Shown here: positions 1 through 63,637 of the stretch, one piece after another
Position numbering within the stretch: position 1 is the first letter of the stretch
Layout of the letters: each line of letters starts with the position of its first letter
Source of the DNA: a virus
Lineage: Duplodnaviria; Caudoviricetes
Length of the DNA: 64,000 bases
IMG/VR virus record: IMGVR_UViG_2600255062_000003
Coordinates: 32,001 to 96,000 of that record
Direction: 5' to 3' (one strand)
Translations under genes and position numbers: made by a program
The notes under the pieces: model-generated
Seen by the model: the letters and a program-made list of their open reading frames with translations, nothing else
What the model was told of the DNA's origin: nothing
Database searches by the model: none

Positions 1-66
1 ATACAAATATACTTCGGACAATTCTTTCACCCTTTCTTATCAAAGGTACATTTTATTCATTCATGT

Positions 67-1059
67 TCATACTCTTACGCTTCTAACAGCTTTCTGTGAC
101 CTGTTCATTATAGATGGCTCTAACCTCTTATTTGCTATTTCTATGTATTTAGGTTCAGTCTCAAATCCAATAAAATTTCTATTATTTTTCAAGGCGGCAA
201 CAGCGGTAGTGCCAGAACCCATAAAGCAATCCAAGACTACGTCTCCTTCATTACTACTATGAAATATGATGTTTTCAACTAATTCTACTGGCTTTGCGGT
301 TATATGTCCTTGATTTCTAGCGGGTGGATATAACCAAACGTTACTGTTTGCTCTTAAATCCTGCTTTACATTTGCTACATTGAAAGGGTAGCGATCATTT
401 TCGTACGTTTTTAGTAAATGTTCGTAATCATATTCACCAATTAGAGAACAGATTAAATGCCAGTCCTGCTTTGTGGGAATGTTTTTTCCCAACATTACAT
501 TCGAACACCAACCAGTCGGATTTCCGTTTTTAGAGGTCTTTAATTTACGAAAATCAATCTCCCTTAGTCCTTTCTTTTTCATTTCGGCATGAATGATTTT
601 GGAAAAAGGAGTTTGAACATTCTCTTTTTGCAGCGTATAAAAGAAGCAGTACTCAGTAAACCCATTATAATAATTTCTCATCCCATTTATAGCTAATCTT
701 TGTTGTACGTACCCATAATTCTTGAAATCGGGATTAATTTTGTTCCATGTTATCATCTGCTTAAAATTGAATTCTGTATTTTCTTTTAACCAATTTTGTA
801 TATCCACAACTTGCAAAAAGTCATTATGAAAAAAATATAAGCTTCCTTTATCTTTTAGAACTCTTTCAATTTCTTTAAAGATCGATCCCATCCAATCTAT
901 GTAATTTTCTATATTATCCCATGATGCTTTGTTGATATTATAAGGAGGGTCAATTACAACCAACCCTATACTTTTGTCTGGAATCAACTTCAAACCCTCT
1001 ATACAATCCATTTGATAAATATGATTAAGTTTTATGCTTCCCATTTGTTCTATACTCAA
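67..1059 (-). CDS. DNA N6-adenine/N4-cytosine methyltransferase (beta class)
   Basis: DPPY motif N-terminal, VLDCFMGSGTT SAM-binding motif C-terminal. Confidence 0.92.
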   Translation of the reverse strand: MSIEQMGSIKLNHIYQMDCIEGLKLIPDKSIGLVVIDPPYNINKASWDNIENYIDWMGSIFKEIERVLKDKGSLYFFHNDFLQVVDIQNWLKENTEFNFKQMITWNKINPDFKNYGYVQQRLAINGMRNYYNGFTEYCFFYTLQKENVQTPFSKIIHAEMKKKGLREIDFRKLKTSKNGNPTGWCSNVMLGKNIPTKQDWHLICSLIGEYDYEHLLKTYENDRYPFNVANVKQDLRANSNVWLYPPARNQGHITAKPVELVENIIFHSSNEGDVVLDCFMGSGTTAVAALKNNRNFIGFETEPKYIEIANKRLEPSIMNRSQKAVRSVRV

Positions 1060-1110
1060 TTAACCAATCCTCTCTGTGACATATCGTGTTAAAATGTGCA
1101 TTTTATGAAA

Positions 1111-1425
1111 TTAATTATATTTTGGAACTAGTTTATTTACTTTAGAGTTATCTGCGAATTGAACAACTTTCATATTTACATCGGGTACGAATGTCAAAGC
1201 TTCAGCTACGGCATAGCTACCGTCTGGATTACGTTGTTGTGTAGATACTTGAACAAGACACCCGTTATGAAGGTTACACACCTTTGTTGATTTCATCCAT
1301 CCCTGCGACTCAGAACTCGCTTTACACAATAAGGAAAAAGTATCCCCATCGCCTATAGCTTTAATATCTGATATTTTTTCTTTTGCGTCCTTAATATTTT
1401 CTATGGATAAGTTTTTGTTTTCCAC
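1111..1425 (-). CDS. conserved phage hypothetical protein
   Basis: RBS, flanked by boundary sites 1090/1451. Confidence 0.75.
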   Translation of the reverse strand: MENKNLSIENIKDAKEKISDIKAIGDGDTFSLLCKASSESQGWMKSTKVCNLHNGCLVQVSTQQRNPDGSYAVAEALTFVPDVNMKVVQFADNSKVNKLVPKYN

Positions 1426-1471
1426 TTAGCATTTTCTCCCTTTTTCTTTATAAAATTTGACTTTTACTTGC

Positions 1472-1729
1472 TTAATAAATTTCTTTTATGTAATCGTATG
1501 TTTTCTCAAATACATCTGGTTTACATGGATAAATTTCTCCATTAACACCTTGGATGATATAATCACCAGCTTCTCCACGCATAATGCCTTCAAGTGTGTT
1601 GATTTCACAATGAGTAGAGTGAGTAATAATATCATTTGATGAAACTTTATCACAAAACCAATCAGGTCTATCTTCAATCCAGTATCTAAATGCTTCAACT
1701 TCTACAGGTTTTTTGCGGTAAAGTGCCAC
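1472..1729 (-). CDS. conserved phage protein (YRKKPV...TLEG...GDYII...YPCKPD family)
   Basis: Widespread phage motif pattern; RBS AAGGAG. Confidence 0.8.
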   Translation of the reverse strand: MALYRKKPVEVEAFRYWIEDRPDWFCDKVSSNDIITHSTHCEINTLEGIMRGEAGDYIIQGVNGEIYPCKPDVFEKTYDYIKEIY

Positions 1730-1961
1730 TTTAACATTCTCCTTTATAATTTCTAATCAAATGCGGCATTTATTAAATATTCATTCAACCTTATGTTTAT
1801 TTAAATATTCTGAAGTGACTTTATCTTTTTCCAAATTATATTTATCCAACAAAAAGCTCAATAAGTCAATATCACTTACTTCCGTCCCGTTGCAAAATGG
1901 GCAATATTTAGGAGAAATACTAGTGTCATCAATGATATCGTCAATCTCGTAATCACCATCA

Positions 1962-3110: not shown

Positions 3111-3350
3111 TTAAAACGTTCTACATCCTTTATGATACTGCTTGCCTTTATACTTGAATTTAGCTATAAACGTTTTAATAAGAATCAAAGTATCATTTAC
3201 TCGTTCTAGAACAATTACTCCGTATCTAGTCATCCATCTAATCTTACCTTGAACATTTGGGAGTGAAGCCACCTCTTTAATAAGGCGACCCACTCCAATG
3301 TTGCTCTGCTCACATCTAACTCGCGCATGTTCGCTGATCTTGATTCTCAT
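3111..3350 (-). CDS. hypothetical protein
   Basis: ORF, operon context. Confidence 0.6.
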   Translation of the reverse strand: MRIKISEHARVRCEQSNIGVGRLIKEVASLPNVQGKIRWMTRYGVIVLERVNDTLILIKTFIAKFKYKGKQYHKGCRTF

Positions 3351-3354
3351 AAAA

Positions 3355-3576
3355 TCACCGTTTTACAGACTTAAGAGCCTTGCGCACTTTTGCAAATTTC
3401 GTGAGCGTTGCCCCTTCTTTTTGTCCATTCACGGCAGGCTTAACAAATTGATACTTCAATCCTTGTTTAATTGCGATACGTTTTGCTTCTTTTACTGCTC
3501 CAAGATAGTCAGTTGGTAGATTGTTGATTACCGCGCTTTTGTTTTGTGTGTTTACTGCGATTCCGTAAAATTTCAT
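3355..3576 (-). CDS. hypothetical protein
   Basis: RBS GGAG, operon context. Confidence 0.65.
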   Translation of the reverse strand: MKFYGIAVNTQNKSAVINNLPTDYLGAVKEAKRIAIKQGLKYQFVKPAVNGQKEGATLTKFAKVRKALKSVKR

Positions 3577-5715: not shown

Positions 5716-6170
5716 TGATGTTCCTCCTCTCTGAACGTATTAATCCTTAATAACATTTAAGAATCTGAGGCCTAAAATAAAGTCTCCGTGATTAACATTG
5801 GTTTCAGTGGTTGTCCATTCTGTTTCATATCCATGCGCCATCAATATAGACTGAATTTCATTTATAAATTCTCCTTGCTCCTCTTGGTTGTAACGATAAA
5901 AATTCATTTTATTCCACCTTATAAAATAGTAGTTTTACCCATTTTTCATATTGTGACGTAGTATGTTTATTTCCATTTGAGCCAATCTAAGTTGTTCTTT
6001 AAGCAAGAAAGCATATTCGACTGACCCTTTGCTGGCTTCTTTTATCTTTTTATCAATCTTTTTCATCTGCTTATCAATTACTGAGATACTTTCTATTGTC
6101 ATACTCATTTCATTGTTCATAGTTACCCATCACTCCTTTTTATAAAATCTTGTTTTTACTCCCACTCTCC

Positions 6171-6746
6171 TCAAAAGATACCCATTTTATAATACTTAAT
6201 TATTCTCCATTCCCCATTAGAGATATATTTGTTTACTGTATTTACATTAATCTCATAGGTATTTAAAGTATCAACGTGTACAATAGAATACTTATCTCCT
6301 AATTTAGTAGCATAATATTCAAATCCATTCTGATTTTTAAAATAAAATGAATCTTTTAGTTCAATTTCGTTCTTGGTATTATTTTTGTTTGTTATCTCAT
6401 CAAGCTCTTTAAGCAGAGAATACATCGCTTTATCTTTCAAAGAAATCAACTCATTAATATATTCATCTGTAAATCCATTTCTTCTCATATCAATTTGCTG
6501 CTTTAAATAACTAATCCGTTTTTCTTTCTCCACTCGTTCTACATGGCTCTTGGTGTCCACCTTGGACACAATCCATCTTGTAGGCTTAACCCCTTGATGA
6601 GAATTCGAAATTCTCAGTACTCTACCTGTCTCATAGCCTTTTTGAGTGTCACAAACAACTAAATCGTCTTTTTTTAATTCAATATCAGTGTAGAATGCGT
6701 ATGGCGTTGGACTCCCATTATGTTTTACAATTGCAATTTTAGTCAT
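6171..6746 (-). CDS. hypothetical phage protein
   Basis: RBS AGGAG before ATG at 6746. Confidence 0.7.
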   Translation of the reverse strand: MTKIAIVKHNGSPTPYAFYTDIELKKDDLVVCDTQKGYETGRVLRISNSHQGVKPTRWIVSKVDTKSHVERVEKEKRISYLKQQIDMRRNGFTDEYINELISLKDKAMYSLLKELDEITNKNNTKNEIELKDSFYFKNQNGFEYYATKLGDKYSIVHVDTLNTYEINVNTVNKYISNGEWRIIKYYKMGIF

Positions 6747-7253
6747 ATGTATTATTCTCCTTTTTATCTGCTGTTTTTCTGAGACCAATTTTTGTATTCA
6801 TCTGATCTAATAGCAAAATAATCACCATCATGCTGAAAATATTTATAAGCAATAAGTTTATTAGCCGTGTTTTTTATATTCACTCTATCCCCCATAGTTA
6901 CGGGAATCCATTGATACAGCTCATTTACTTCATCAAGCCAAGTTAAGAAGTTCTCCCATTCGAGCTTTGATACAGTTTGAAAGTCGTCTGATTTGAACAA
7001 ATCATCACATCATTTCGTAAAAGTATATTTTTATTCGAAAAATTGTTTTAGATCCTCAATACCATCTCGAAGTTTTCCAAGGTCACTATTAATATCGTCT
7101 TCAATTTGCTCACTTTCGGGAATGTCCTCAAAAACTTCATCCCAACTGATAATTTGTAGGTTGTGCAATGCTTTTTCCATTTCTAGAACTACTTCTTTAG
7201 CTTGTCTAATGTTCATATGTATTCTCCCTTTTAATATATTTGCCTTATTTATT

Positions 7254-7972: not shown

Positions 7973-8265
7973 CTTTCTTGGTAAAATTCAAATTTTACAA
8001 AGAAGTTATCTTCCTATTGGGGTATACTCGACTACCTCAAATTCATCTCTTATCGTCTTGACGATTTTTTCTTGACCTTCTTGCCCCAGTTCCCACCAGT
8101 CAAAGCCTTTATAATTGTATCTTGCTTCGTCATAGGAGTCTGATGTGATAACTCCGTTTGCTGCTCCCTTGGTTGTGTACACCAGTTTACGACCTTTGCA
8201 TTGATAGGGCTGACCATTTCTATATATAACAAAAACTGTTTCGTTTTTTATTTGTAGTGATATTG

Positions 8266-8705: not shown

Positions 8706-8948
8706 TTATTTTTGTTTATAAAACTCTTTTTTGCAGCATAACATAAAAGTTGTTGATTCTCTGCCATCATCGTTAATTATGAATAGCTCCGCTTCCCCCA
8801 AGCTACTTGCATTAGCTTCCCACCTGCCTAACTCATAAATTTTCCCCTCCGTCACCTTTAATCCTTGGTGCATCTTCGATTTAATCAAAACATGAGTTGC
8901 CGTGTCTAAATTCTCTGTGAGAATTAGATCAGCAAGTAGAATAGACAT
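8706..8948 (-). CDS. hypothetical protein
   Basis: RBS GGAG; own promoter TTGACA-17-TATAAT at ~8977-9005. Confidence 0.7.
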   Translation of the reverse strand: MSILLADLILTENLDTATHVLIKSKMHQGLKVTEGKIYELGRWEANASSLGEAELFIINDDGRESTTFMLCCKKEFYKQK

Positions 8949-9063
8949 GCGACCATCTCCCTTGTTTCATATTACGATTATATTTGTTTATATGTTATTT
9001 GTCAACATTTAATGTGATTATATTAGTTTATATGTAGTGTGTGTGATAAAACCTACATTTTAC

Positions 9064-10101
9064 TCAGATAGGTATCTTGTATTTTTCTTGATTCATTAAT
9101 GTCATAAAAAATTCCAATCCTTTGTCTATGGGAGCATCTTTTTCTTCAAGCACATTTCTGTTTTTATGCGCCAAAATACAATAAACGTTATCTCTGATAA
9201 CAAATTTACTCGCTTCCTCTTTTATATCAGCAGCACTTATGTTGTTATCGAAGGCCAATATAACCTCTACGCCTAAACGCTCAAGCTTCAACACCTGCGT
9301 TTTACTTAACTCGTGTCCACCTACACTCACAGTGTGCTTAATACCATAGCTCCACGCCTTCTGAACGCTCTTCTCAGCTTCCCATACAATTACTCTACCA
9401 GCCTTTTTTATATGATTGTATGTCTTATCTAAGCCATATAGGATCTGGCTCTTTGGGGTTGGTATAGGGAACCAATATTTAGATGTTTTTAGTGTTTTAT
9501 AATCAAGCGTAGTTCTTCCTTTGACCCCAACAAGCGTCCCCAGTTCATCTCTGATCGGTATTGTTATACAGTTATCCCTTAGAGAATACCCAACTTCAAA
9601 CAATCTCTGCGTATCGCAATTTATTCCTTCATCAAGAAATAGTTTATTTGGGATAGATATGTAAGAGTTTAGAATAGATTCATCTACTTTTCTTAGCGGA
9701 ACTTCATCGTAAGCTTCGGTCTTTGGTTCTATTAAATCTAGAAACTGAAGACATGGATCTATTTCTGCTTTTGTATATTTATAATCAGCGTAATAACTAT
9801 AACCACAAACTTCACAAATATAGTACATGGCCTTTGAAAAGGAGATATCTTTATAATGTTGAACAAGTGTTATAATGTCTGGATGCCCACTACCTAGTTT
9901 GGGCAGGGGGTTCGTATAGCAATTTACAAGTAAAGTATCAGTAAAAACCTGAAGACTAGAAGGGTTATCTCCTCCCGGCCTTGTCGATCTTATTTCCCCA
10001 TAACTAGACATCCTATCATTAATATGACAACCGAGAGATGTTAAAATATCTGCAACTTTATTGTCTTTTATTATGTTTTCTTTTAAAGTTTGGGCGTCAA
10101 T
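9064..10101 (-). CDS. DNA primase (TOPRIM); probable ATT start at 10101
   Basis: IPIRDE.G.LVG.KGR, WEAEKSV, LAFDND-like TOPRIM motifs; GAGGTG 7 nt before an in-frame ATT. Confidence 0.88.
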   Translation of the reverse strand: MDAQTLKENIIKDNKVADILTSLGCHINDRMSSYGEIRSTRPGGDNPSSLQVFTDTLLVNCYTNPLPKLGSGHPDIITLVQHYKDISFSKAMYYICEVCGYSYYADYKYTKAEIDPCLQFLDLIEPKTEAYDEVPLRKVDESILNSYISIPNKLFLDEGINCDTQRLFEVGYSLRDNCITIPIRDELGTLVGVKGRTTLDYKTLKTSKYWFPIPTPKSQILYGLDKTYNHIKKAGRVIVWEAEKSVQKAWSYGIKHTVSVGGHELSKTQVLKLERLGVEVILAFDNNISAADIKEEASKFVIRDNVYCILAHKNRNVLEEKDAPIDKGLEFFMTLMNQEKYKIPI

Positions 10102-10119
10102 TTTAAATCACCTCTCAAG

Positions 10120-11652
10120 TCATTCTTCTTTGTTAAGTGCCTTTTTCAAATCCTTAACTTGTTTTTCTGTTTTAAGCTTCTTACTTTCTTTTTTGAGCTG
10201 CTTTAATTCCTTTTCGTTTTCAGAAGGAACAAGATAGCCTCTCTCAATCCATATATTTTTACCTTTATCAACTTCAAAACATAAAATATCTTTATCTTTG
10301 CCACCACGGTTTTTATCAATAACAACCATATAATAGTTTGTATGTATATCTAATTGAGCTGTAGATTCTCCAACAAACGGGTCATTAGGATTGAATATAA
10401 CAAACTTATCGTATTGATCTCTAGGTATTGGTTTAGCCATCATTAGTGCATCGGCTACGTGCTTAATATGTTTACCGTTAGCAATGGCTTGGCTTGTCAA
10501 CATATCATTAAACAAACTATCATCCGTCAATTGGAATGTAGACCATACTGGGATATCCTCTGTGCTTGCAACTTCCTTCAACATATCGGCAGTCCTAACA
10601 AATGTCATCCAATCATGATCGGGCGCTTTCATTGTGTCATATATAATTAACTGACAATTTCTTAATTTGTGCCTTTTAATTTGTCGCTTAAGTGTATTTT
10701 CGTCATACTTGTTGAGTTCTAAAAAATAAATCTTACTGTTCTCTTTTATGTATCGAGCTGCTTCTTTAACAATCTCTTCTTCGTCCTCAGTCAAAGTTCC
10801 AGTTACAATTTTCGTTTCATCAATTCCGTCTATACCTTTTCTTTTCATTTGAATATCGAATCCAAATTCGGGATTGTTTAGGACGCTACTGATCTGCATA
10901 CCCAACCATTCATTTTCATCCTGTTCATTCACAAGTACCAGCACAGGGATTTTCAGCTTAATTCCAAGATAACATGCTATTTTACTTGTAGTACGACTTT
11001 TGCCACATCCACTATGCATCCCAAAAAGATTGAATTTCTTACCCCTAAGTCCACGCAATAGAGAATTGATTATCTCAAATGGAATTGGTATTCCTACGTC
11101 TGGAGTTAACTTCCATTCTTCAATCTTTTCAGGCATGTTATGTCCTAAAATAACACTGTCTTCTACTCCACCAATCACTGTACCAATAGTATTGATCTGG
11201 TACTCCATTCCTTTTATGATATCTTCGGTTCCAATCTTATCGAAATCTTTTCTATCCATTAATTTTTGAACCGGGAAACCTTTTCGTTCAAATTCTCTAA
11301 GCAGAGAAAACTTTTTAAGCTTCTCATAATAGCCGGGGAAATCATCTAAATCAACTATTCTTGTAATTCTATCTATGTATGAGTAGCCCTTCAGATAATC
11401 ATACTTCTTTTTTCGTTCATCATTCGAATTCATATATATGTTTATTTTTACTTCATTTATTTCTGTTCCTGCATGTTGACTATATAAATCAAGTAATGAA
11501 TCGTACATAAACCTAGCCGATGGCTGATTAAAATCATATTTAGATTTAATCACTTCGCTATAATCTAAAAGTAAATCAGGATTTAAATAAAAGCTTCCCA
11601 CCACTAACGTTTCAGTTGAAATGTCTTCGATTGTAGATGTTACGTCAGAAAT
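10120..11652 (-). CDS. replicative DnaB-like helicase; probable ATT start at 11652
   Basis: Walker A GMHSGCGKS, IIYD, Q-L, IDKNRGG; GGAGG 8 nt before ATT. Confidence 0.88.
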   Translation of the reverse strand: MSDVTSTIEDISTETLVVGSFYLNPDLLLDYSEVIKSKYDFNQPSARFMYDSLLDLYSQHAGTEINEVKINIYMNSNDERKKKYDYLKGYSYIDRITRIVDLDDFPGYYEKLKKFSLLREFERKGFPVQKLMDRKDFDKIGTEDIIKGMEYQINTIGTVIGGVEDSVILGHNMPEKIEEWKLTPDVGIPIPFEIINSLLRGLRGKKFNLFGMHSGCGKSRTTSKIACYLGIKLKIPVLVLVNEQDENEWLGMQISSVLNNPEFGFDIQMKRKGIDGIDETKIVTGTLTEDEEEIVKEAARYIKENSKIYFLELNKYDENTLKRQIKRHKLRNCQLIIYDTMKAPDHDWMTFVRTADMLKEVASTEDIPVWSTFQLTDDSLFNDMLTSQAIANGKHIKHVADALMMAKPIPRDQYDKFVIFNPNDPFVGESTAQLDIHTNYYMVVIDKNRGGKDKDILCFEVDKGKNIWIERGYLVPSENEKELKQLKKESKKLKTEKQVKDLKKALNKEE

Positions 11653-11665
11653 GTTATCGCCCTCC

Positions 11666-12271
11666 TCAGTCAAACAGTGTTGTAACGTCAATCTGGTCAG
11701 ACTCATCATTTGATGCTACTTTGTTAATTTGGATCTGGTTAATCCTCTCACGGACATTACTCATTGATTCTACATGTTTACTTAATGCCTCAGACTCCAC
11801 TTGATTTCGCTTAGTTTGTCTATTCGCTCTAATGGAGTTCTCAATATTGTTTTTTACTATTGCAAAACAATATTTCAACTCAGCCATTATAGTTTTGAAT
11901 TCTTTATTGCCTCTGGCCCATTCTATTTTCTCAGAGCAGTAATCATATGTATCTCCAATAACTTTATACGTTACTCCTTGCTTATACTTCCTATCTAACT
12001 TACCAAACAACACAGAATCATTTCTCAAATCTTGAATGAACGGATAAAAAGATTTAGGCATAGATTGTCTGCTTTGCAGTTTATGTATCTTAACTATTGT
12101 GTCTGTCAGTGAATCTAATTCCTCTTGTTCTTTTTGTTTAAATACTTTTTCTCGCTTCCATTTCTCATGACAGTATTCCTTATGATAATGCCGCTTATCT
12201 GTTTCTCTAACCATATCTGCTTTATGACCATATTGCCCACATACAGGACATTTCAATAATCGTTCAGCCAA
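11666..12271 (-). CDS. replication-associated protein (SPbeta YorH-like position), N-terminal Zn motif
   Basis: CPVCG...H...C; directly upstream of helicase. Confidence 0.65.
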   Translation of the reverse strand: MAERLLKCPVCGQYGHKADMVRETDKRHYHKEYCHEKWKREKVFKQKEQEELDSLTDTIVKIHKLQSRQSMPKSFYPFIQDLRNDSVLFGKLDRKYKQGVTYKVIGDTYDYCSEKIEWARGNKEFKTIMAELKYCFAIVKNNIENSIRANRQTKRNQVESEALSKHVESMSNVRERINQIQINKVASNDESDQIDVTTLFD

Positions 12272-12285
12272 CTAATCACCTCCTT

Positions 12286-13122
12286 TTAAATTACGAATTT
12301 ATCGAACACTGGCAGTCTCAACATATTGTTTTTGGTATACCCCCTATGTTTAACAATACATTTAATAGCAGGCTGAAGATATACCGTATCACGAGTCTCT
12401 TTGGTCTTGAGTTGTTGAAAAACCTTATAACCTGCCTGTCTCTCTGCTTTTCCTACTCCCAGCTCCATTACCCCTAAGACACGCTCTCCATCTGATAGCA
12501 GCCATCCAAAATCTTCTTTTCTATAGCCAACAATAAAGAATTCTTCAATTTCATAAGCAATTATTTTTCTCCATGAGGAAGACCTTTTACCTATTTCATA
12601 TTTAGAGTCAATCAATTTTTGAACGGTTCCTTCTAATCCTTGCTGTTTAACCAAATCAAAATACTCTATACCTTTACCAACAAGAAACTTGGATTTTGTA
12701 TAGTAAGTATTTTCAATGAATGATTCATCAAGTAACTCCTTACGTTCGAGCAAAGACAGCTTAGTTATATCTTTCTTTTTATATTTAATGATATCAAACG
12801 CACATGCAGTAACTTTATGTTTACTTTTAATTGATTTAAATCTCTCCATAACTGCCGCAAAATTGGGCTTACCATCGATATCAGAAACGATCAGTTCACA
12901 ATCAATCACACTACCAACAGGAATAGATAACGAATCAATCAATTCAGGGAAGTTTGCCGTTATTTCGTTATTGTGTCGTGTATACAATCTAGGTCGATCA
13001 ATATTACTAACAATCAATCTTATTCCATCTAACTTTAATTCTGTTATAAAATTATCATCGTTAAATGGTTTATTGTCCTTTGAGTACTCTAGAAGCATTG
13101 GAGATACAAACATATTCATCAC
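12286..13122 (-). CDS. ATP-dependent DNA ligase
   Basis: ELKLDGIR adenylation motif, AFDI, GLEG, LRLP. Confidence 0.92.
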   Translation of the reverse strand: MMNMFVSPMLLEYSKDNKPFNDDNFITELKLDGIRLIVSNIDRPRLYTRHNNEITANFPELIDSLSIPVGSVIDCELIVSDIDGKPNFAAVMERFKSIKSKHKVTACAFDIIKYKKKDITKLSLLERKELLDESFIENTYYTKSKFLVGKGIEYFDLVKQQGLEGTVQKLIDSKYEIGKRSSSWRKIIAYEIEEFFIVGYRKEDFGWLLSDGERVLGVMELGVGKAERQAGYKVFQQLKTKETRDTVYLQPAIKCIVKHRGYTKNNMLRLPVFDKFVI

Positions 13123-13194
13123 CCATTTAACAGTATATCAAATGAGTATATACTATTTCTGCGGTAAGTTATGTATATCAGTAAAATTGAACTT

Positions 13195-14373
13195 TTACTC
13201 AAAAGGATCTTTGTTGTCTATCCATGCCTCATATTCTTCTTTTGGTACTTCCCGTACTACAAAACACTTCTTAGCAAAAATTTTATGGTCATCTTTATGG
13301 CTAAAGTCTTCATAAGGAATAATGACTTCAATTAAAACACCTTGATACGCATAATTAGACTCATCTATCTCTGAACGCTCATTGAAATACAGATATTTAT
13401 TTTCTGGAGTTGCCATTTGAGCAATTTTATATTCAAATTTCTTGTCCCAGTGACTAAAATAACGATCATCACGTTTATCAACAAACTTATAAAACTTACG
13501 AGATTCTATGTATTGTTTACCATCAAATTCTTCGACTTCTTCTAATTCTTTGCTGAACTTTTTGAGTGCTCCTTTTGCAGAAAGCTTGTATGTATAACCG
13601 TTAATTCTTGTGATTTTAGGCGTTTCCTTTTCAATTAGGTCTATAATATCATCTACGTTATTAAAGCTAATTTTTTCAGGTTTTTTGAAATAATCTTCGC
13701 TTAATGACAGATCAGCAATTTTATCAATCACTTTTGAGATACTAAATTCTTCTCCTTCATCCAAACTAATTAGCTTATCGTAGTTAATCCCGTACATTCC
13801 ACCTAAATGCTCTTTTAATTTCTCGATACTGTCAATTTCTAAGTCCATACAGCGTAAAGCGATTCGTAAGAATTCAGGTTTCGAAATGTAATATCCCTTA
13901 TCTTTATACTTTTGAACTCTCAACAACGATACAATTGGGAAGGCTGTATCTTTATTAAATCTAATCTGTCTCTGTGCATTATGCTTCAGGAAATCATTAT
14001 GTAGGATAAATTCTTCTGTTTTAAAATCAAATGCTCCCATGCAGATCGTAAAGTCAAAGCTATCAAATATCTGTTCAGCATTCTCAAAGTACTTAAAATG
14101 AATCAATTGCACTTCTTTATCATCTACTTTTACCAGCAACGCCTTTTTAGTCAATGCATGAACCCAATCGCTACTGTCTTCATAAATCCTCTCAACTAGT
14201 TCAACTAATGATGCTTCACTACGAAAATACAAATCGATATCATTGATTGGATTCCCACTAAACAAACTTGTAACAGTTCCACCAGCAATGAACACTTCAT
14301 GTTCCTTCAGTGTTTTTACAAGATGGCTTCCCAAGATATCGTACAACTTATTCTTTTCAAAGATATGACTCAT
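13195..14373 (-). CDS. nucleotidyltransferase-superfamily protein
   Basis: IAGG...NDIDLYF and FDFTIC motifs. Confidence 0.7.
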   Translation of the reverse strand: MSHIFEKNKLYDILGSHLVKTLKEHEVFIAGGTVTSLFSGNPINDIDLYFRSEASLVELVERIYEDSSDWVHALTKKALLVKVDDKEVQLIHFKYFENAEQIFDSFDFTICMGAFDFKTEEFILHNDFLKHNAQRQIRFNKDTAFPIVSLLRVQKYKDKGYYISKPEFLRIALRCMDLEIDSIEKLKEHLGGMYGINYDKLISLDEGEEFSISKVIDKIADLSLSEDYFKKPEKISFNNVDDIIDLIEKETPKITRINGYTYKLSAKGALKKFSKELEEVEEFDGKQYIESRKFYKFVDKRDDRYFSHWDKKFEYKIAQMATPENKYLYFNERSEIDESNYAYQGVLIEVIIPYEDFSHKDDHKIFAKKCFVVREVPKEEYEAWIDNKDPFE

Positions 14374-15522: not shown

Positions 15523-15554
15523 TTTCCTGCCTCCATTATGGTAAAAGAAAGATT

Positions 15555-15806
15555 TTACTTTGATTCATCATACAACAGAATACCTTCAGTGAGCTTCCCC
15601 ACTGTTGTACTCAGTACACCAGCCATTTGTATTAAACGATCAATACTCACTTTAATCTCTGCATTCTCGTATCTATGAACTGTCTTCTTTGTAACTCCCA
15701 ATTCATCCGCTAGAGATTGTAAAGTGTGGTTCTTACTCTTTCTAGCCTTTTCAATATTCCTTCCAACTATCGTATAGAATCGCTCAGAATCAAAGTCGTG
15801 TGTCAC
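15555..15806 (-). CDS. XRE family HTH transcriptional regulator
   Basis: ARKSK.HTLQSLADELGVTKKTVHRYE. Confidence 0.88.
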   Translation of the reverse strand: MTHDFDSERFYTIVGRNIEKARKSKNHTLQSLADELGVTKKTVHRYENAEIKVSIDRLIQMAGVLSTTVGKLTEGILLYDESK

Positions 15807-47499: not shown

Positions 47500-48387
47500 T
47501 TACACAAATTGCAGCATATCTCGTAAAGTAAAACTTTTCAAGAGCATTTCAAATTCATCTTTTGATCTGTTTTTTGGAAAGAAAAAAGTACATTGTCCAT
47601 CGTATCTATCTAAAATAAAATAATGAGGATATCTTGGATCATCAAATACTAAAAGTCGCTCGAACGCCAAGGTATCTAACTCGCTTTCACTATATACAGG
47701 ATCAATACAAATCAAATGATTAAAATTAACCCTTACTCCCATTTGTTTTTCTATAAAATTATCTAATATCGTAAAAACATTGATATATGCTGTTCTAAAC
47801 TCTGACATAGTCATCTGTTTTCCTGAGATTTCTTTAGTCCAATCCAGATATAATAAATAACCTTCTGTTTTATTAATAATTTCATCTTTCGCAAGTGCAT
47901 CTGTGTTATTAGGAAATCTCAAACTATATTCAAAATAGTTATTTGCATGAGCGATTTCAACAACCTCACCTCTAATTGTTCGCCCTTTTTGTAAAATATC
48001 TTCAGCATATTCTCGATTAATATGATCTTGATTCACTTCCATTTTAGCCATCTCGTTAAAAATATAAGTATGCTGTATACTGTTGCTTAAAGAGGTTACA
48101 GTTTCTTTGATTATGTCGGGAAGAGTAACTAAAGAATAAATTGATATCATCGGATAGTGCAGTAAGTGCAATTTTGCATGTAAGAGTTCGTGTACATATA
48201 CAGCAATATCATTTTTTGCTTTTGGATTTATAATTATTTGAATGCCTCTTCTATTTCCCAAAGTCAAACCCAATTCTTCCATGTCTTCGTTACCAAGAAT
48301 AAATTCAAGAGGAATATTAGTTTTAGAAGAAAGATGGATTATTTCTTTATAAATATCCATGTTCATTATTTCATCAGGTAAATTCAT
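47500..48387 (-). CDS. HEXXH zinc metallopeptidase-like protein
   Basis: VHELLHAKL. Confidence 0.6.
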   Translation of the reverse strand: MNLPDEIMNMDIYKEIIHLSSKTNIPLEFILGNEDMEELGLTLGNRRGIQIIINPKAKNDIAVYVHELLHAKLHLLHYPMISIYSLVTLPDIIKETVTSLSNSIQHTYIFNEMAKMEVNQDHINREYAEDILQKGRTIRGEVVEIAHANNYFEYSLRFPNNTDALAKDEIINKTEGYLLYLDWTKEISGKQMTMSEFRTAYINVFTILDNFIEKQMGVRVNFNHLICIDPVYSESELDTLAFERLLVFDDPRYPHYFILDRYDGQCTFFFPKNRSKDEFEMLLKSFTLRDMLQFV

Positions 48388-48694
48388 AGTACACTCTTAT
48401 CCTTTCTATAAAACACATCTTTTACTTAAACGACAAAGCAAACCCCAATGCTAAAAATGGAACTACCAAAATAAACGGAAGTATAAATTGCGGAAAAGTC
48501 ACAAACAATCCTACTACTGTCGCAATTAAAAATACAGGAAGAATGCAGTATAACACAAGCTCTTTAAAATGCTGAATTCTGTTTCTTTTGTTTGTTATAA
48601 CAGACTTCGACAAAGAGTAAACATATTTTAAATAAAATATTTCCTTTTCTTTTGGGAAAATGAACATTTTCTTAACTCCTTTAAAATAGCCATT

Positions 48695-49762: not shown

Positions 49763-51298
49763 TTATAATCTAAGTAAAACAGTCATTTTAAAGTAAGGTT
49801 TGTGCTTTCTCAACGAATAATGCTTCAATAACATTGATGTTTTCACTCTCAATAAAATCATTCATTTCTGCTTCCGTTTCAAACCAAGCAAAAGTTGACG
49901 CATTTTCTGAATTTTGAAACGTAAGTAGAAATTTTTTATCCCTCATAATTTCATCTCCCTATAAAATAGTTATTTGATTAGATTATGTCTATTCTCCAAT
50001 GATTTCTTTACAAATTATAAGTTCAAATTCAGCTAATTTATTGAAGCGATCTTGTATGGTTTGATATATCTTATTAAATTCATCCAATGTAATTATGTCA
50101 TTTGCATATTCTACCCGAGCTTTATCTAGCTTCTTCTGAACTTTAATTAATAAAGAGCTGTGTGCTTCACTTGAAATCATTTTTGAAAGAGATATAGTTA
50201 ACTCATATGCTCCACCTATGACATCTTTCTTGTTTAGTTTCATACCATTGGTCATAATCGTACCCTCCTCGGTTAATTTAAAAAAAATCTCAATAGTGAC
50301 CATCTTAAATCACTTCACATCAGATGAAATAAACCTTTTACTCTACAATACTATGTAGTGTGAAACTGTACAATGATTCCTTTGTGATAAGTAAATAATA
50401 ACACACATCATAATTATTTTCAATGTATGATTATATTTATATATATTATTGGGGCAAGTTTTGCCCTTATGAATACTTTGCGATACATCTTAATGTAATA
50501 CTTAAGAACGCCAATCCTACAATGCATCTGAGTATTGTTTGTGAGTCTGTAATAATTCCGTTCATACTTAGCAACAATAAGCCAAACGCTGTCACCCCAA
50601 CTATCAAATTTGCTTTGTTATTATTCATCATCTTCACTTCTCCTAACAACAAAGTTTTAACCAATTATATCATATTCCAATTACAAAATAAAAAGCGACC
50701 TGTTAAGTCGCCTATATGCTATTTATGTATTTTATATTGTCTCTCTTCTTCATAGCTAGCGGCAGCCTCAATCAACTCAATCCACTCACCATCATGATCC
50801 ATGACACACAGTTTATGATTAATGATTGTTCCATGTTTATACATAAGCGTACTCCTCTCCAGTGAGTGAACTAATAATATTCACCTCTGAATTATGGCTA
50901 TTATAATGGTAGTATCTATCAATCAAAATAAAACTCATAACTTCTTTGGATCTTCCAACGGTCTCAATTTCTTCTTCAACTTTACCGTCTACTACTATCA
51001 TATAAGAGTCCACTATATACACTCCTTTTTATTGTGATTATATTCATATTGCAGATATCTACAATTCACAGATTAGCTCTCTGTCTTCTTTAAATTCTTC
51101 TGCCTCGTTCCAACTGCTAAATTTAGCGGCTAGTTCAATGTCATGTGTATATATTTGTCCTCTATATTGCTGCCAATCACCTCTTAAATATTGCTTGGTT
51201 TCTGCGTTTATAATTGTGTACATTTTTTTAATCTCCTTTTTATTTTTGCTTGTTACCCTCTCAATCAAAGACTTATTATATAAGATATACTTTTAATG

Positions 51299-52050: not shown

Positions 52051-52503
52051 GTTGCGACTTTTGGTCGCTTCTTTTTTGTTATCAAATACTTCTTTCATCA
52101 AATTATTTAATATGCTTTGTTACAATAACTCCACTCATTGGCACTTCGTTAATATAATCAAAATCATAGGTTGAGACTTCCTTCTGAATCTCTTCATTAA
52201 AAATCAGTAGAGCCTCTTCGTAATCGTCACCACATACATAGGTCTCATATTTTGCATAAGGCATACTCCAATTTACTTTGAATAAACGCTTCATTAGTTC
52301 ATCTCCTTAATGTTTGTGAAAGAATCCTTTTAACAGCATTCCGTGATACATTCAATTGCTTCATAATATTGTTTCCTATTATATTGTCTATAGAATTCTC
52401 TTCCTGCTCGAAATTTATTTTTCGCACTAATGTTTACTGTTTGTGTTTGACAAGCAAACCGATTATAAAAAATTACTGAATAATCGTTCATATACGGACT
52501 CCC

Positions 52504-52893: not shown

Positions 52894-52913
52894 CTCCTCA
52901 TGAAATAATCTTT

Positions 52914-53294
52914 TTATCTGAAACGAACCTCATCACTGCTGATTCGTTGTGTCACCTTATAGGACTTTAATTCGCCTACATCTTTTTTTGATGCCCATTG
53001 AACATATCCGCTGGGAGTAATGTACGCAAAAGTGTGAATATTATCGCTGATTACAGGCAATTGAAATTCACCATGATATAGTGGATAGGTAATGTATTCA
53101 TTAATAAGAAAATCGAAATTGTATTTCTCTATGTAATCGAATTTTTCAATGTTTGGAATAAATACGAACCATTTCATTCTGTCAATCGATTGAGACTGAA
53201 TAGACATCTCTACACCATCATTGAGAATGTATGGCACATTGTCTACTTCTCCTGTTACTTGCATTGTAGTTACAATTCGAATTTTATAATCCAC
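52914..53294 (-). CDS. hypothetical protein, paralog of 52504-52893
   Basis: Shared GEFQLP.ISDNI. Confidence 0.75.
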   Translation of the reverse strand: MDYKIRIVTTMQVTGEVDNVPYILNDGVEMSIQSQSIDRMKWFVFIPNIEKFDYIEKYNFDFLINEYITYPLYHGEFQLPVISDNIHTFAYITPSGYVQWASKKDVGELKSYKVTQRISSDEVRFR

Positions 53295-54660
53295 TTGACT
53301 TCACTCCTTATAAAATATTCATTTGATTAACTTTTATCAAGTGGATCAATACGGTTCTCATAGCAATAAGCAATTACACAGTCTTCCGTATCTTCTGTGT
53401 AGCAGATATATTTACCGCCAAACTTATAATGAGGATCTTCTTTTGTGTTAATTTCTTTTTTGCACATATAACATTGTTTTTTAGCCACCGATATCAACTC
53501 CTTCTAAAAGGATCATTTTATTCTAAAACCCATAATTTGCATTACTTCTTTTGCAGTATAATCTGTACCTGCAACATAATTAGATATAACACTTTCAAGT
53601 ATTTCCTTTGGATTGATACGTGACTGTTTTCCCTCAAGCACATTAAGCAATATTTGTTCAGATTCTTGAGCGATCTTTTGATTGAGTTCACTAACGAATC
53701 GAGTGTTAGTAGGATAGTTAGGAACACCCTTATAAAATCCATTATCTAAATCATGTTTTTTCCACACTTCTAACAATTGAGCTGCCTTGTTATATTCGAA
53801 CATCTTTTTTTGCACCTGTCTTTATAAAAATATAGTTTTACTATAGTTCATCTATTGTTTTAGATTTCTGTCCTTCAAGATAATGAAACATATCATAAAC
53901 CATACTATAATTACCACCGTCCATTATAGTAAGAAAATTATTTATTTCATCGGCTGATAAATTTTTAGTCATAATTTCAATTATTTTAGCGACTTCTTTG
54001 ATATTTTCAACGCCTTCGCTGGTGTACTGTTCTTCTAACCGTGGGAATAGTTCATGAATATTGATTTTCATTTTTAAACATCCTTTCAGAGCAAATATAG
54101 TTTTACTATGCTGTTTGGTTAAGGACGTGCATGACCACCATCACACCGTCTTCCTCGCAAGCAGCCACAAACTTAGCCATTTCAATTTTATCATTAAAGT
54201 CATATGTATTCGCCACCAACTTGTCCAGCACCTTTTCAAAAACAGTTACCTTGTGCATGAATGTCACCTCGTTGTTTATAGTTCTTTTCTATATATTTAT
54301 TATATATCATGTGATTATATTTGTATATATGTTTTTTATTATTTCATTATATTTATTTGTTTTAGTAAAAACAAATAAAAGACCGCCTAAGCGATCTTGG
54401 TCAAATTAATCTTTTACTTAAAATATTCCCACTCAGAGTCTGCACCTTTATAGCGCGTTTGAATTACTTCGCCCCCTTCCCAAACTACTACATTAACCGC
54501 ATGATATTCGGGATATAGATTGGTTTCCATCGCTACCTGTTCATCTTCTCCGGCATATACAATCTCGCTGCCATTCTCAAAATATCCGATTGTTATATAG
54601 GTTTTCATTTTAGTGTCCTTTCATCGTAAATTCAGACTTCTATGTATTTCAATAAACTTA

Positions 54661-55485: not shown

Positions 55486-56758
55486 ATTTACATTCTCCCT
55501 TTATTATCTAATTTTTGAAGTAAAGTAAAGTAACTATCGTAGTCTTCAATGCGCAACGTGTGCAAATATTCAAGCGTGTAATTAACTGACATCCACCAAT
55601 TGAATCCATACATTTCATAAAAAGAATCTGCATCGGAAGTCAAAGTGAATAACATAACTTCGTCAAAATTTTTATGTCCATACACTCCCAAACCTTTTAT
55701 CCATCCATCTAACCCTGATTGTGTGGCTTGGTTTGATTCATAATTTAAGACCAACCATTCAACACCATTCAATCCTTGATTTAATTTATCCTTGATTATA
55801 TCCCATTCAAGAACAAATGCGGCTTCATTAAAAGTGGTCATTATCATCTTCTGCCCCTCCCTTATGGTTCTGTCAGGCAATCTCACCCTGCTAACTCCCT
55901 CCCTGTCATATAACATTATTTTCTTTTGTTTGTGCGTTTAGAATTGACATGCTCTTTCATCATTTCACGCATACGATCCATTCCCACACTTTTTATTTTC
56001 TCTGTACTGGAAGCATAATCAATAAATTCGTTATAGCTTTCAAAATCCAACTGAACAACTGTGGGACGTATCTCTTTAATTTTCACTTCTTTCAACTTAC
56101 TCCTTCTTTCTATGTATTATTGATAAAAGTCCGTTTTTATTCCCGTAGGGACTACCTATTTTCATTTATGAATTTTATCTTTATACCAAACATAAATAAA
56201 TTCTGTTCTTGATACATCGGGATTAACTTCGAATTCGCGATATAAGGCATCTATAAAATCATCAACAGTATTATCAATAAAAGAGATCAGATCAAATTTA
56301 TCTAATTTATTTGACTTCCAAAGTGTTGTGGCTAGCTCAATTGCAATATCCATCATTAATTCTTGTTTTTCACTCTCAATGTTTTTATAGTCTAAAGAAT
56401 CAATACCGTATCCCATATGTATCAATGTTTTATTCAAATTCATCATTATCAACCTTTCAATATTTATTCTTAGTTAACCTCTGATTCTTTTGATCTCTCT
56501 TTGAAGTGTTCGTGTTTTACTCTCAGTTACTGTTTGTTCGCATCTAGAACATTTTATACGTCCTGAAGTTTCCTGCTCCCACTTATCATCATTCTGGCAT
56601 GGACATGGATTCTCCTTTAATGCTTTGTTCCAGATTTCATCTAACTCCTCGATATATGTCACACCACATACACTCCTTTCAGGTAAAATAACTGTTTCAT
56701 GCGTTTTCAACTTTTGAATGATTAAGTGGTATCCTTACTCTTTTCATATCTCATAATT

Positions 56759-58547: not shown

Positions 58548-58751
58548 AGTATCTCTCCATTTCTGAATAAAATCGTTGTTTTATCATATGAATAATACTC
58601 TGTTACTGGTTATAGTACACTGTTTCTCATTCGTTAAGTAAATTATACCACATCCATTATTTATATTCAATAATATAATTATTTTTGTTTATAAGCCTTT
58701 ACTCAAAAATAAAACTGAGTCCAGAATATAGACCCAGTTCAATTACAAAAT

Positions 58752-61050: not shown

Positions 61051-61056
61051 CAACAC

Positions 61057-61096
61057 AAAAAGAAGCGTTTGAGATAATTACTCAGCGCTTCTTTTT
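61057..61096 (+). terminator. bidirectional intrinsic terminator
   Basis: AAAAGAAGCG...CGCTTCTTTT. Confidence 0.7.
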
Positions 61097-61116
61097 ATGA
61101 TCAAAGTAACATTTTA

Positions 61117-61572
61117 TTATGAATATTTGGTTCTTGTTTCTAAGCCTTTACTTATAAATGCGATAGTTAGAGTTGCGTAAGTTATGGCATTCATCAATTT
61201 CCCAAACTTTTCGGTCAATATCTTCTCTGGAACATCATAAAGCTCTATTGGAACATATATCGTTATAAATAATATCAACAAAACCACAATGATCATTGAT
61301 ATTCCTGAAAGCACCTTCTCGAATTTATTCAGTTCCCTTTTCGATATTTTGTAAGAAGATTTAAAATAATCAAAAGTTGTTAGCAGTATTGAGACAAATC
61401 CCGTTGTTATTGTTAAACCAGTTAATACGTTAATCCAAATTGAAACTACTGATAAAACTAAATATACTAATGCAACTACGTAAAATAATGTTGATAGACA
61501 GAAATCTATATAGTATGTGAGTCTTCTATTCATTAAATATTTAAGTCCTCTCTTTTCATGGTACACGAACAA
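61117..61572 (-). CDS. multi-pass membrane protein
   Basis: About 4 hydrophobic segments. Confidence 0.6.
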   Translation of the reverse strand: MFVYHEKRGLKYLMNRRLTYYIDFCLSTLFYVVALVYLVLSVVSIWINVLTGLTITTGFVSILLTTFDYFKSSYKISKRELNKFEKVLSGISMIIVVLLILFITIYVPIELYDVPEKILTEKFGKLMNAITYATLTIAFISKGLETRTKYS

Positions 61573-61921
61573 AAAACAGCCTCAAAAGGCTGCTTAATTG
61601 ATTATTATATGTATTGCATTTGCCAAAGTCGCAACAATTCCAGTAAATTTCTGCATAACAGTAGTTGCTATATTGGCAACGTTCTCCGAACTAGTGTCAG
61701 GATTCTTAAAAGAATACATAGCATATCCAAGAAATAAACTACCCGCCAAAAAAGCAAACCAATCATTTGTTTTCAATCTCATATAATTCACCTATACCTT
61801 TTTCCTAATTATAACATACGGCTCAATATGATGTATAATCTATGTAAAAGACTGGTTTATATACAACTCATTTTTCATGATAGTGCTTTGACATTAACAA
61901 AGAGCAGTTTCCCACTCCTTG

Positions 61922-62158
61922 TTAATACTCCTCATCCTCTTCTTCAAGCTCATCATCTTCTTCTTCGTTTTCTTCTTCCTCATCTTCGTTAGAGTGTATC
62001 AAATTATATATTTCTTCCTGCTGGCAACTGAGACAATATGTACCAACGTCTCTCTTTAATTCGTTATCAAATACAGTTGTACTTCTGTTTGATCCGCAGT
62101 CACCACATGAATCGTCGTCGTTATCTTCAAGTATGTATTTGCCGTATCTCTCAGTCAT
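61922..62158 (-). CDS. small Zn-binding protein with poly-acidic tail
   Basis: CGDC...CLSC; EDEEEENEEEDDELEEEDEEY. Confidence 0.7.
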   Translation of the reverse strand: MTERYGKYILEDNDDDSCGDCGSNRSTTVFDNELKRDVGTYCLSCQQEEIYNLIHSNEDEEEENEEEDDELEEEDEEY

Positions 62159-63637
62159 TTAAATGCTCCTTCTAGGTTTTATTTTATTGTAGCATGATTA
62201 CGCCATATGGGTGGAGTGATATACCGCACAACTAATAGACTCTTTTAATATTGCAATAATGTCTTAATCAGAGGAATTATAAATATACATTACTATGGAT
62301 AAAATTATCATAAAATTCGAGTGATATACTTTTAATTTTGCATATTCATACATTTGTATCTACGTAAAACAAGAATTTTATCCAAATTACACATATGAAG
62401 GAACGGTGCAATAAAATCCGTATTCTTCGTTTGTTCCCAGTTCCTTAATTTCAACCTTGTGTCGATCATGGGATGATTCTTTATGTACCCTGATTCCCAT
62501 CACATCGTTTTCCAAGAAGCTATAATTTTCACTGTCGTTCAGGCAGACGACATTCCCCATATCTAACTTTTGACTGATAAACGCTATCATTGATGCATTC
62601 ATTTTTTGTATTCATCTCCTTGTAAAATCACTCATTTATCCTAATGTGTTTTATTTGAAAAATTCGAACTATTGTACATCAAACAATCCATAACCCTATA
62701 CCCCTCAATCATTTCACCAAATTCTTCCGTATTTACGAATAATGCTTTACAAGGTTCAGCAGCAAATTTTAAAAATGGCAAAACTTCAATCTTTTCATTA
62801 TTTATACGAACATAAGCAATTGGAACGCCATCAACATACAGTTCATGTAAGCTAAACATATTTAATTCTTTTGTATTGATTCCTTGTAATTCATTGATTC
62901 TATCAATCTGAAACATATTATTCATAGTTACATCTCCTTATAAAATGAGTATTTTAAGTTGTCTACAGTACATCGTTACTCATTACAATATATTGTTACC
63001 GTTGCAACCTAGCCAGCTTTAACTGGCTAACGCTCAGAGCCTAATGCGGTTTATTGTCGCTCTGACGACTTAATAGCTAAAATACCAAGCATTCATTTTA
63101 CCAATCAGAATGGACAATTTAATTCTCTCATTTTCTGTGAATTTAATTTTTAAACGTTCTTTTTTCTCCATCTCTTCGGTAAATTTCCGTTCATCTCTAG
63201 TAATTGTATTTATATATGCAAGCATTCCTCTTAATGCACCAACATTTATATTTTTCACCGTAACCGCCTCCTATGTATTAACTTACCTTATGAATTCATT
63301 ATAACACACCATTTCATTATATTCAAGTAAATGATTATATTTGTTTATTAGATTTGCACTTTCACCAGTCTATATAAACCATGTAAAATATCAGTTTTAT
63401 ATTCGTTTAGACTGAACATATGCATAATATTCTTCAAAAGACTTATATCCACCACGCTGCTTATATTGTATGTATTGCTCCAATACAATTTGATTAAATT
63501 GCTTTGGTGTTAATTCAGATGGATCTAAGTTACCCTGTAAAAAATTCCAATATAGTCGCGATACACTAGATGGCTTTTTCTTAGACTTCTTCTTTTTCAT
63601 GTAATCACCAACTTTCCTCCCCTACATGTTAAATCAC

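Follow-up and report, generated by a model that had tools for sequence, protein, structure and literature searches.

The DNA analysed here is a window of 64,000 nucleotides, bases 32001-96000 of one virus record of 171,352 bp (IMGVR_UViG_2600255062_000003), in which inverted repeats of the form TAAAA-N6-TTTTA, 16 bp long and some 60 in number, punctuate the genes. From ~5 to 110 kb of the genome the genes are on the minus strand and comprise those for replication and lysogeny together with many small genes, and the plus strand beyond carries the structural genes; within the window, the genes at these sites are on the minus strand, the early arm having only a few plus-strand genes. Pfam analysis of the window proteins identified a DnaB-type helicase, a primase-like Toprim protein, a RecJ-like nuclease, an AAA_24 protein, an SSB-like protein, a DNA methylase, a Ser/Thr kinase, a radical-SAM protein, AgrB and LytTR proteins, and homologues of MrpR/YopR and of the DndB-like YopQ. 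The AAA_24 gene has 70% DNA identity to yorG of SPbeta, the helicase shares 41% identity with its counterpart in Geobacillus virus E3, and the nearest relatives are Paenibacillus prophages and IMG/VR contigs; on these likenesses the virus is classed as a large SPbeta-like temperate phage of Paenibacillus. Megablast of window positions 1-50 kb against a phage collection returned no close relative, and the relatives compared below were taken from IMG/VR and from Paenibacillus genomes. Genes were called with a crude in-house caller, so that all junction counts are approximate.

The window contains 37 exact copies of TAAAA-N6-TTTTA, compared with a mean of 1.16 and a maximum of 5 in dinucleotide shuffles. 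The spacing is equally specific: TTTTA follows TAAAA at a distance of 6 bp 37 times, and at distances of 2-5 and 7-11 bp at most once each. No other palindrome of the 5-6-5 type exceeds 4 copies in the window. With up to one mismatch allowed, 74 matches were found, 58 of which are either exact copies or carry a centre common to a relative; two of these 58, located inside genes, are probably chance matches. Over the whole 171-kb genome, 47 of 54 exact copies fall in the first 100 kb, that is, in the minus-strand early/accessory arm. Sites are reported below as strand-neutral 16-mers and are called exact when they read TAAAA-N6-TTTTA and variant when an arm carries a mismatch.

Read on the coding strand, the order at the junctions is stop codon, site, 14-22 nt with a ribosome-binding site (RBS), and start codon, and the position of the site is more tightly linked to the preceding stop than to the start that follows. 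In 11 of the 37 exact sites the left-arm TAA is itself the stop codon of the upstream gene, four more stops lie inside N6 (as at the exact junction site 3350-3365), and the rest lie upstream; with the stops so distributed, the motif is not created by stop codons. Three core blocks are devoid of junction sites, namely 9064-13122, 34275-37415 and 37660-46172. The first, on the minus strand, holds the primase-like gene, the DnaB-type helicase gene and two further genes, and is one colinear block of 86% identity in relatives; an exact junction site (13182-13197) marks its upstream edge. The second, also on the minus strand, holds the genes for the yorG-like AAA_24 protein, an unknown protein and the SSB-like protein, and is bordered by an exact junction site at 34249-34264 and an exact site at 37644-37659. 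The third includes the lysogeny block (37774-43834, minus strand). Most of what the initial annotation had said of the motif itself agrees with these results: its count of 33 exact copies and about 61 in total becomes 37 and, with variants, 58; the enrichment survives comparison with dinucleotide-shuffled sequence (37 vs 1.16, spacing 6 alone being enriched); and the placement between a stop and the next RBS, the frequent TAA stop in an arm (its eight listed positions are all among the 11) and the core operons without junction sites are borne out. The stop-codon overlap, which it had said partly inflates the count, cannot explain the motif, given the distribution of stops.

Besides the sites treated individually in this text, exact copies occupy gene junctions at 6343-6358, 7018-7033, 15542-15557, 17935-17950, 18160-18175, 18528-18543, 19637-19652, 23232-23247, 25953-25968, 27103-27118, 27661-27676, 30661-30676, 31457-31472, 47487-47502, 48409-48424, 56124-56139, 58568-58583 and 62365-62380, and a further exact site lies at 31356-31371. 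Junction sites with a variant arm were found at 2820-2835, 22706-22721, 26471-26486, 28583-28598, 32174-32189, 46838-46853, 56684-56699 and 62623-62638.

Some copies are followed by separate signals, either a sigma-A promoter match or terminator-like hairpins. Hairpins of this kind come after the exact site at 46173-46188 and after the variant junction sites at 54401-54416 and 61101-61116, and a promoter match comes after the exact junction site at 9047-9062. The latter is a perfect TTGACA-17-TATAAT (9005-8977, minus strand) between the site and the gene at 8706-8948, and is the sole 12/12 match in the first 20 kb. The motif has no two-hexamer promoter structure, no G+C stem and no T-run, and a promoter scan remained at shuffle level (88 vs 91.7).

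The motif is common to a family of phages. Measured against a reversed-pattern control, there are 34 vs 2 copies in SPbeta, 30 vs 7 in Geobacillus virus E3, 47-65 vs 1-9 in the Paenibacillus relatives, 52 vs 6 in Psychrobacillus phage Perkons and 29 vs 5 in Tsamsa; counts are weak in a Staphylococcus SPbeta-like phage (20 vs 10), and Lactococcus phage 949 (12 vs 6) is without enrichment. The copies in SPbeta and E3 occupy the same stop/RBS junctions, and in two Paenibacillus genomes of 7 Mb the matches are concentrated in the prophage and not spread over the host chromosome. Judged by these counts, the motif is a family signature restricted to phage. The motif string was found in no paper of the searchable literature, papers on the genome and biology of SPbeta and on Tsamsa included, a search that left outside it the subscription journals (among them the 1999 SPbeta genome paper) and much of the older SPbeta literature.

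The dyad symmetry extends past the five-base arms, with R at position -1 in 43 of 48 copies and Y at +16 in 43 of 48, and it also reaches the ends of N6, the first base of which avoids A and the last of which avoids T. Information content is at background beyond -1 and +16, with 6-7 bp conserved per arm and a site consensus of R-T-R-A-A-A, six bases, T-T-T-Y-A-Y. Base pairing at -1/+16 and within N6 is no commoner than base frequencies predict. Single-arm variants in this genome break the potential stem in 26 cases and leave a wobble pair in 7, with no strand bias, and coding-strand counts of the G-T (7) and A-C (6) variants are much the same. The double G/C arm variant was seen 8 times in the relative G003 and 19 times in G005, where the products of the single frequencies predict ~10 and 18.5, respectively, and no compensatory arm change was found in any lineage examined. 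This pattern identifies the site as a dyad-symmetric element of double-stranded DNA whose half-sites vary independently, as would be expected for a dimer bound to duplex; the independence of the arms argues against an RNA hairpin and against a folded strand of the attC type. At the second arm position, A and G (T and C in the other arm) are about equally frequent in the more distant relatives G003, G005 and L016-L018 and in Perkons, and A/T is found there almost without exception in SPbeta, G001, G002 and this phage. The preference of the half-site seems to have changed between lineages, and such a change could be matched to changes in the binding protein.

The six central bases behave as positional addresses. 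Two whole relatives were compared, G001 (165 kb) and G002 (202 kb), whose core genes have ~86-88% DNA identity to those of this phage. With G001, 70 six-base centres are common, 68 of them in one colinear chain, and with G002 the corresponding numbers are 71 and 66, against 2-3 in the reversed-centre control. Sharing falls with distance, to 13 colinear centres in G003, 6 in G005 and chance level in SPbeta. For 28 of the shared pairs per relative, neither 150-bp flank is homologous (threshold set at the 99th percentile of random flanks); per-position identity in these pairs is ~0.3-0.4 up to -2, high across the 16-mer and at background again by +17, and the island of identity is, on these alignments, the site itself. 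In individual alignments homology begins at the first base of the site, or stops 2-12 nt past its last base. The exact junction site at 7982-7997 is such an island, with both flanks unrelated in G001, G002 and L004, a further relative, and the exact junction site at 18756-18771 has both flanks unrelated in all relatives. The same situation, a common centre between unrelated flanks, was found in G001 and G002 for the variant junction site at 40-55 and the exact one at 1451-1466, and in G002 for the exact one at 1090-1105. Flanks are also unrelated at the exact junction sites 49775-49790 (in G001 and G002), 53505-53520 and 53825-53840, and at the variant junction sites 49962-49977, 50325-50340 and 52317-52332. 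At the exact junction site 2529-2544 the upstream flank is identical in G002 and the downstream one unrelated, and a site with one arm mismatch (6726-6741) has its centre kept in relatives.

Adjacent sites carry different centres, and duplicated, inverted-duplicate or palindromic centres were found 0 times in five largely independent genomes (this phage, G003, G005, SPbeta and E3), against 10.7 expected from column-preserving shuffles (Poisson P = 2e-5). Since a centre repeated within one genome would delete or invert DNA, unique and asymmetric centres fit a system in which matching decides both the partner and the direction of recombination. A second pair of phages, SPbeta and phi3Ts, has 43 common centres (control 8), ten of them with one homologous flank only and about four colinear with none; by these alignments this pair shows the same pattern as the Paenibacillus phages.

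Gene content changes between addresses that themselves stay in place. In the window, 18 intervals between consecutive shared addresses (G001) and 21 (G002) lack blastn or tblastx similarity and differ in length, for example 205 bp vs 1053 bp and 948 bp vs 545 bp. Other intervals are 99-100% identical to G002 (5922-6143, 16708-16962, 30890-31457 and 62941-63384) or to G001 (52901-53311), compared with ~86% for the replication block. The first of these is a one-gene unit, 99% identical to G002, with exact junction sites at its downstream (5922-5937) and upstream (6143-6158) ends. Likewise, variant junction sites delimit a unit 100% identical to G002 (16708-16723, downstream; 16962-16977, upstream) and the unit 99% identical to G001 (52901-52916, downstream; 53311-53326, upstream), and exact junction sites delimit a unit 99.5% identical to G002 (62941-62956, downstream; 63384-63399, upstream). 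Homology breakpoints occur at 46 of 70 junctions with a site and at 34 of 90 without one (odds ratio 3.2, p = 8e-4). Colinearity holds for 54 of 55 homologous blocks with G001 and for 55 of 55 with G002. One gene is out of place in G003, and because its upstream address differs there, addresses do not travel with genes.

We take these sites to be addressed crossover joints for gene-for-gene replacement between related phages, and assign to this reading a probability of about 0.6. Exchange between relatives occurs at sites with matching centres and apparently within them. The arms would probably be read by a dimer of a phage-made protein, and the six central bases, unique to each junction and kept at the corresponding junction of relatives, would serve as the positional address. 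Once two related genomes were present in the same cell, through co-infection or because a phage had encountered a prophage, crossovers would take place inside sites of the same address, and two such crossovers would replace the DNA between two addresses by that of the partner, leaving gene order and intergenic signals intact. The most likely enzyme would be a tyrosine recombinase with N6 as its overlap region, YomM-like or YopP-like, perhaps helped by a conserved HU-like protein, all three being encoded outside the window; with N6 in that role, such an enzyme would account for arms that are common to all sites, a spacing fixed at 6 bp, centres that must match and be asymmetric, and sharp edges, and neither a docking site nor an RNA signal alone predicts unique, non-palindromic centres. 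In this specific form, a natural recombinase-mediated cassette exchange with ~60 sites, common arms and unique 6-bp overlaps served by a phage tyrosine recombinase (YomM- or YopP-like), the proposal is a tentative one, a dedicated recombinase taking roughly half of the weight that we place on addressed crossover joints. Crossing-over inside the 16-mer, a need for matching centres and a dedicated enzyme are all three what we infer from these patterns.

Candidate proteins are present. The genome encodes three proteins of the tyrosine-recombinase fold, the MrpR homologue, a 418-residue YopP-like protein and a 333-residue YomM-like protein of Xer type; PF00589 matches lie at 72, 109 and 135 kb of the genome, and none flanks the array as a platform. 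Only ten proteins are common to this phage, SPbeta, E3, G003 and G005, and three of these have the tyrosine-recombinase fold and a fourth belongs to the HU family. The YomM-like protein, encoded outside the window (genome positions 134684-135685, plus strand), is 58% identical to its counterpart in SPbeta, 62% in E3 and 59% in G003, figures far above those of the helicase (24-42%). YopP-like proteins retain canonical catalytic residues in most genomes. The HU-family DNA-binding protein (PF00216; genome positions 114622-114945, plus strand, outside the window) has 50-59% identity across the shared set. Co-occurrence of YomM and the motif is partial, Perkons and Tsamsa having both.

Several observations weigh against addressed crossover joints or against the proposed enzyme. 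None of the candidate recombinases, which are predicted from sequence, is tied to the sites. In all YomM orthologues the second catalytic Arg is Lys, the first Arg, the His and the Tyr being kept, and the YomM-like gene lies in the tail module beside the tape-measure gene, a neighbour that it also has in the lytic Lactococcus phage 949 and in Tsamsa. Lactococcus phage 949 has this gene without motif enrichment, and G005 has the motif with only a YomM paralogue of 27-31% identity. The 6-7 bp conserved per arm are short for known tyrosine-recombinase sites. Moreover, the N6 of distant relatives is conserved little beyond coding DNA, and G001 and G002 are mutually related, so that their counts are not independent. 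As noted, 34 breakpoints fall at junctions scored as site-free. However, 14 of these 34 junctions hold a sequence that matches the motif with two mismatches, and no fewer than two of these sequences are decayed copies of addresses known from relatives; the contrast between junctions with and without a site is understated, because some of the latter carry decayed addresses.

The position of the crossover was also sought in arm differences. Where only the downstream flank is homologous, five sites differ in the left arm only, on the non-homologous side, and two in the right arm only; where only the upstream flank is homologous, four differ in the left arm only and two in the right only, which is the wrong direction. 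In the clearest recent transfers the arm differences fit in three of four cases. Overall, arm differences do not clearly follow the non-homologous flank, and they do not locate the crossover within the site. Laboratory hybrids of phi3Ts and SPbeta were also considered. Most of the intervals that contain their crossovers are stretches of identity 1.4-18 kb long. In two cases a site where parental homology ends forms a boundary of the interval, and the one resolvable junction lies in a 37-bp identity inside a gene and not at a site, as in ordinary homologous recombination. In the published hybrid Hyb2phi3Ts-SPbeta (MT366947), the two unresolved crossover intervals start and end at motif copies (104631-104648 and 119044-119061); the intervals are bounded there because parental homology starts and stops at these copies.

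Of the competing explanations, the one that survives best, although we consider it rather unlikely, is that the sites are docking sites for a phage DNA-binding dimer with a role other than recombination, such as transcription roadblocks that silence or time the long early operons, in the manner of the L5 stoperators, or organisation of the genome by the HU-like protein, and that exchange is a by-product, the sites being all the short identity that unrelated neighbours have in common. Dyad symmetry and independent half-sites suit a dimer on duplex DNA, the sites are confined to phage, their fixed stop-to-RBS position suits control of read-through, and an HU-family protein with the 50-59% identity given above is present in all compared genomes; in addition, YomM may be catalytically altered, as MrpR is (PMC10516654). 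On the other hand, docking gives no reason for centres that are position-specific, never duplicated, never palindromic and kept when both neighbours change, exchange on 16 bp of identity would have to outcompete kilobases of nearby homology, and chromatin affinity precipitation sequencing (ChAP-seq) of MrpR in SPbeta lysogens yielded only ~10 sites, all of the SPBRE type (PMC10516654).

Far less probable is an integron-like system in which RBS-ORF (open reading frame) units excise as circles and reinsert via any two sites. Short, promoterless genes of one orientation, each ending in a recombination-type palindrome, resemble integron cassettes, and tyrosine recombinases are encoded in the genome. 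The attC site of integrons works in folded, single-stranded form with its arms paired, excised cassettes are reinserted at attI, and the IntI integrase gene with attI and Pc adjoins the array. The phage array differs on each count, with arms that lack any pairing signal, cassettes that do not shuffle and no attI/IntI platform beside it. Strict colinearity of gene order makes integron-type excision and shuffling unlikely, and insertion of a circle at one site is disfavoured because it would leave a duplicate centre, of which none was seen; neighbouring centres also differ, and the displaced gene of G003 has another upstream address. The initial annotation had proposed that the sites let single gene units excise, insert and shuffle, and that this explains the mosaicism of the region. 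One part of that proposal stands, in that gene content does change at the sites and breakpoints in relatives concentrate there, and the tyrosine recombinases that it had suggested looking for elsewhere in the phage were found. Its other part, integron-like excision, insertion and shuffling, is at odds with the colinear blocks, the centres that are never duplicated and the missing arm covariation, and the tolerance of heterologous coupling sequences that it had borrowed from Tn916-type integrases is contradicted by conserved, position-specific centres.

An RNA element, that is, an mRNA hairpin between genes for processing, stability or translational control, has very little left to recommend it: the site always lies in transcribed spacer 14-22 nt before a start codon, but the stem would consist of five A-U pairs, pair-breaking variants outnumber wobble variants, and there is neither strand bias nor compensatory change in any lineage, so that a hairpin was rejected for want of covariation. 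At the few genes coded on the opposite strand the sites read alike only because the motif is palindromic DNA. A promoter or terminator signal, for instance for a phage RNA polymerase of the YonO type, would account for a repeated AT-rich element ahead of genes but is equally implausible for a motif that keeps a tighter link with the preceding stop than with the following start, precedes a separate sigma-A match or hairpin at some copies and has no G+C stem or T-run. A YonO promoter was rejected because this polymerase initiates at one late position only, whereas most of the sites are in the early arm.

Among known systems, the closest match in logic is provided by heterospecific lox and FRT sites, as used for cassette exchange with Cre and FLP, and the closest natural ones are pdif modules and the PeSL-mediated modular shuffling of T4-type phages. 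In lox and FRT, as in the phage sites, a short asymmetric spacer separates inverted arms that are identical. Recombination requires that both sites have the same spacer, and two different spacers flanking a segment allow its replacement without deletion or inversion. The likeness of the phage array lies in its unique, non-palindromic, position-conserved centres and in its colinear, unit-wise mosaic: within one genome the spacers are unique and asymmetric, and alignments of same-centre pairs show swapped content around what appear to be exact 16-bp islands of identity. The differences are that lox/FRT systems are engineered, with 13-bp arms, 8-bp spacers and a proven enzyme, whereas the phage has arms of 6-7 bp and ~60 natural addresses known from sequence alone.

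The stoperators of mycobacteriophage L5 and cluster A phages are comparable as dozens of short protein-binding sites in the intergenic gaps of a temperate phage. Stoperators are asymmetric, 13 bp long and without a variable centre, all point the same way with respect to transcription, and block elongation when the immunity repressor is bound to them; the phage site, in contrast, is symmetric and has an address at its centre. SPBRE, the operator of MrpR/YopR in SPbeta, is a repeated element from the same phage family, and an MrpR homologue is encoded in the window. Present at ~10 promoters, SPBRE is 15 bp long and is bound by MrpR, a protein with the tyrosine-recombinase fold that no longer recombines (PMC10516654). 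It was rejected as the identity of the motif on sequence, copy number and location: the master repressor of SPbeta binds a different element, and the motif described here, of which SPbeta holds 34 exact copies, lies at gene ends and was no ChAP-seq peak (PMC10516654).

Resemblance to the pdif/dif modules of Acinetobacter plasmids (PMC6449649) lies in many copies of a site with Xer-type inverted arms and a 6-bp centre bounding accessory genes, which in the plasmids occur in various backgrounds, and the YomM-like Xer-type gene conserved in the phage family parallels their use of Xer. Two inverted arms around a centre of 6-8 bp, as in dif, are present here in the 5-6-5 arrangement with spacing 6 alone enriched, but the ~11 conserved bp per arm are not. 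Of the catalytic set of active Xer recombinases (Arg, Lys, His, Arg, His/Trp, Tyr), the YomM-like protein has Lys for the second Arg, and the YopP-like protein is canonical in most genomes. Unlike the phage sites, which are phage-specific and ordered and whose units stay put, pdif sites have 11-bp arms, are served by the host XerC/XerD and alternate in orientation, and their modules move (PMC6449649). The PeSL (promoter-early stem-loop) cassettes of T4-type phages similarly consist of a short repeated element between small non-essential early genes of hyperplastic regions, at the boundaries of indels and replacements that distinguish close relatives (PMC2839356). PeSL elements contain sigma-70-type promoters and terminator stem-loops and recombine by homology, with mini-circles (PMC2839356), whereas the phage motif is neither a promoter, as the scan at shuffle level indicates, nor a stable hairpin, and its unique centres should prevent site-to-site exchange within one genome.

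Addressed crossover joints would bear on the question of why the mosaic boundaries of phages fall so neatly between genes, for which the views are illegitimate joining followed by selection, or recombination at linkers. This phage family shows a concrete and countable linker with a built-in address, and because the motif occurs in the genetically tractable SPbeta of Bacillus subtilis, the question becomes directly testable. If exchange by address is correct, co-infecting relatives could swap any gene or block address for address with order kept, which would amount to a dedicated machine for mosaicism. The swapped units are small early genes, a class that often holds host-takeover and anti-defence functions, and the sites may set the pace of their renewal. 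If an enzyme is involved, site-specific recombination would have a new natural role here, and the sites would form a ready-made orthogonal set for engineering.

Other features of the window were also recorded. In the lysogeny block at 37774-43834 (minus strand), agr-type quorum-sensing parts lie beside the MrpR/YopR homologue (40213-41187) and the DndB-like YopQ homologue (41191-42516); they consist of AgrB (38942-39496), a LytTR protein (38370-38750) and an unassigned gene for 213 amino acids (39459-40100). In SPbeta, the arbitrium system fills the role of these parts, and in this phage the choice between lysis and lysogeny may depend on an agr-like peptide signal. Next to the site at 37644 lies a single gene for tRNA-Met (anticodon CAT; 37533-37609, minus strand), which is 83-85% identical to tRNA-Met genes of jumbo coliphages. 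A eukaryote-type Ser/Thr protein kinase of 512 amino acids is encoded at 23295-24833 (minus strand), and a radical-SAM protein of 445 amino acids at 20113-21450 (plus strand), its gene being among the few plus-strand genes of the early arm.

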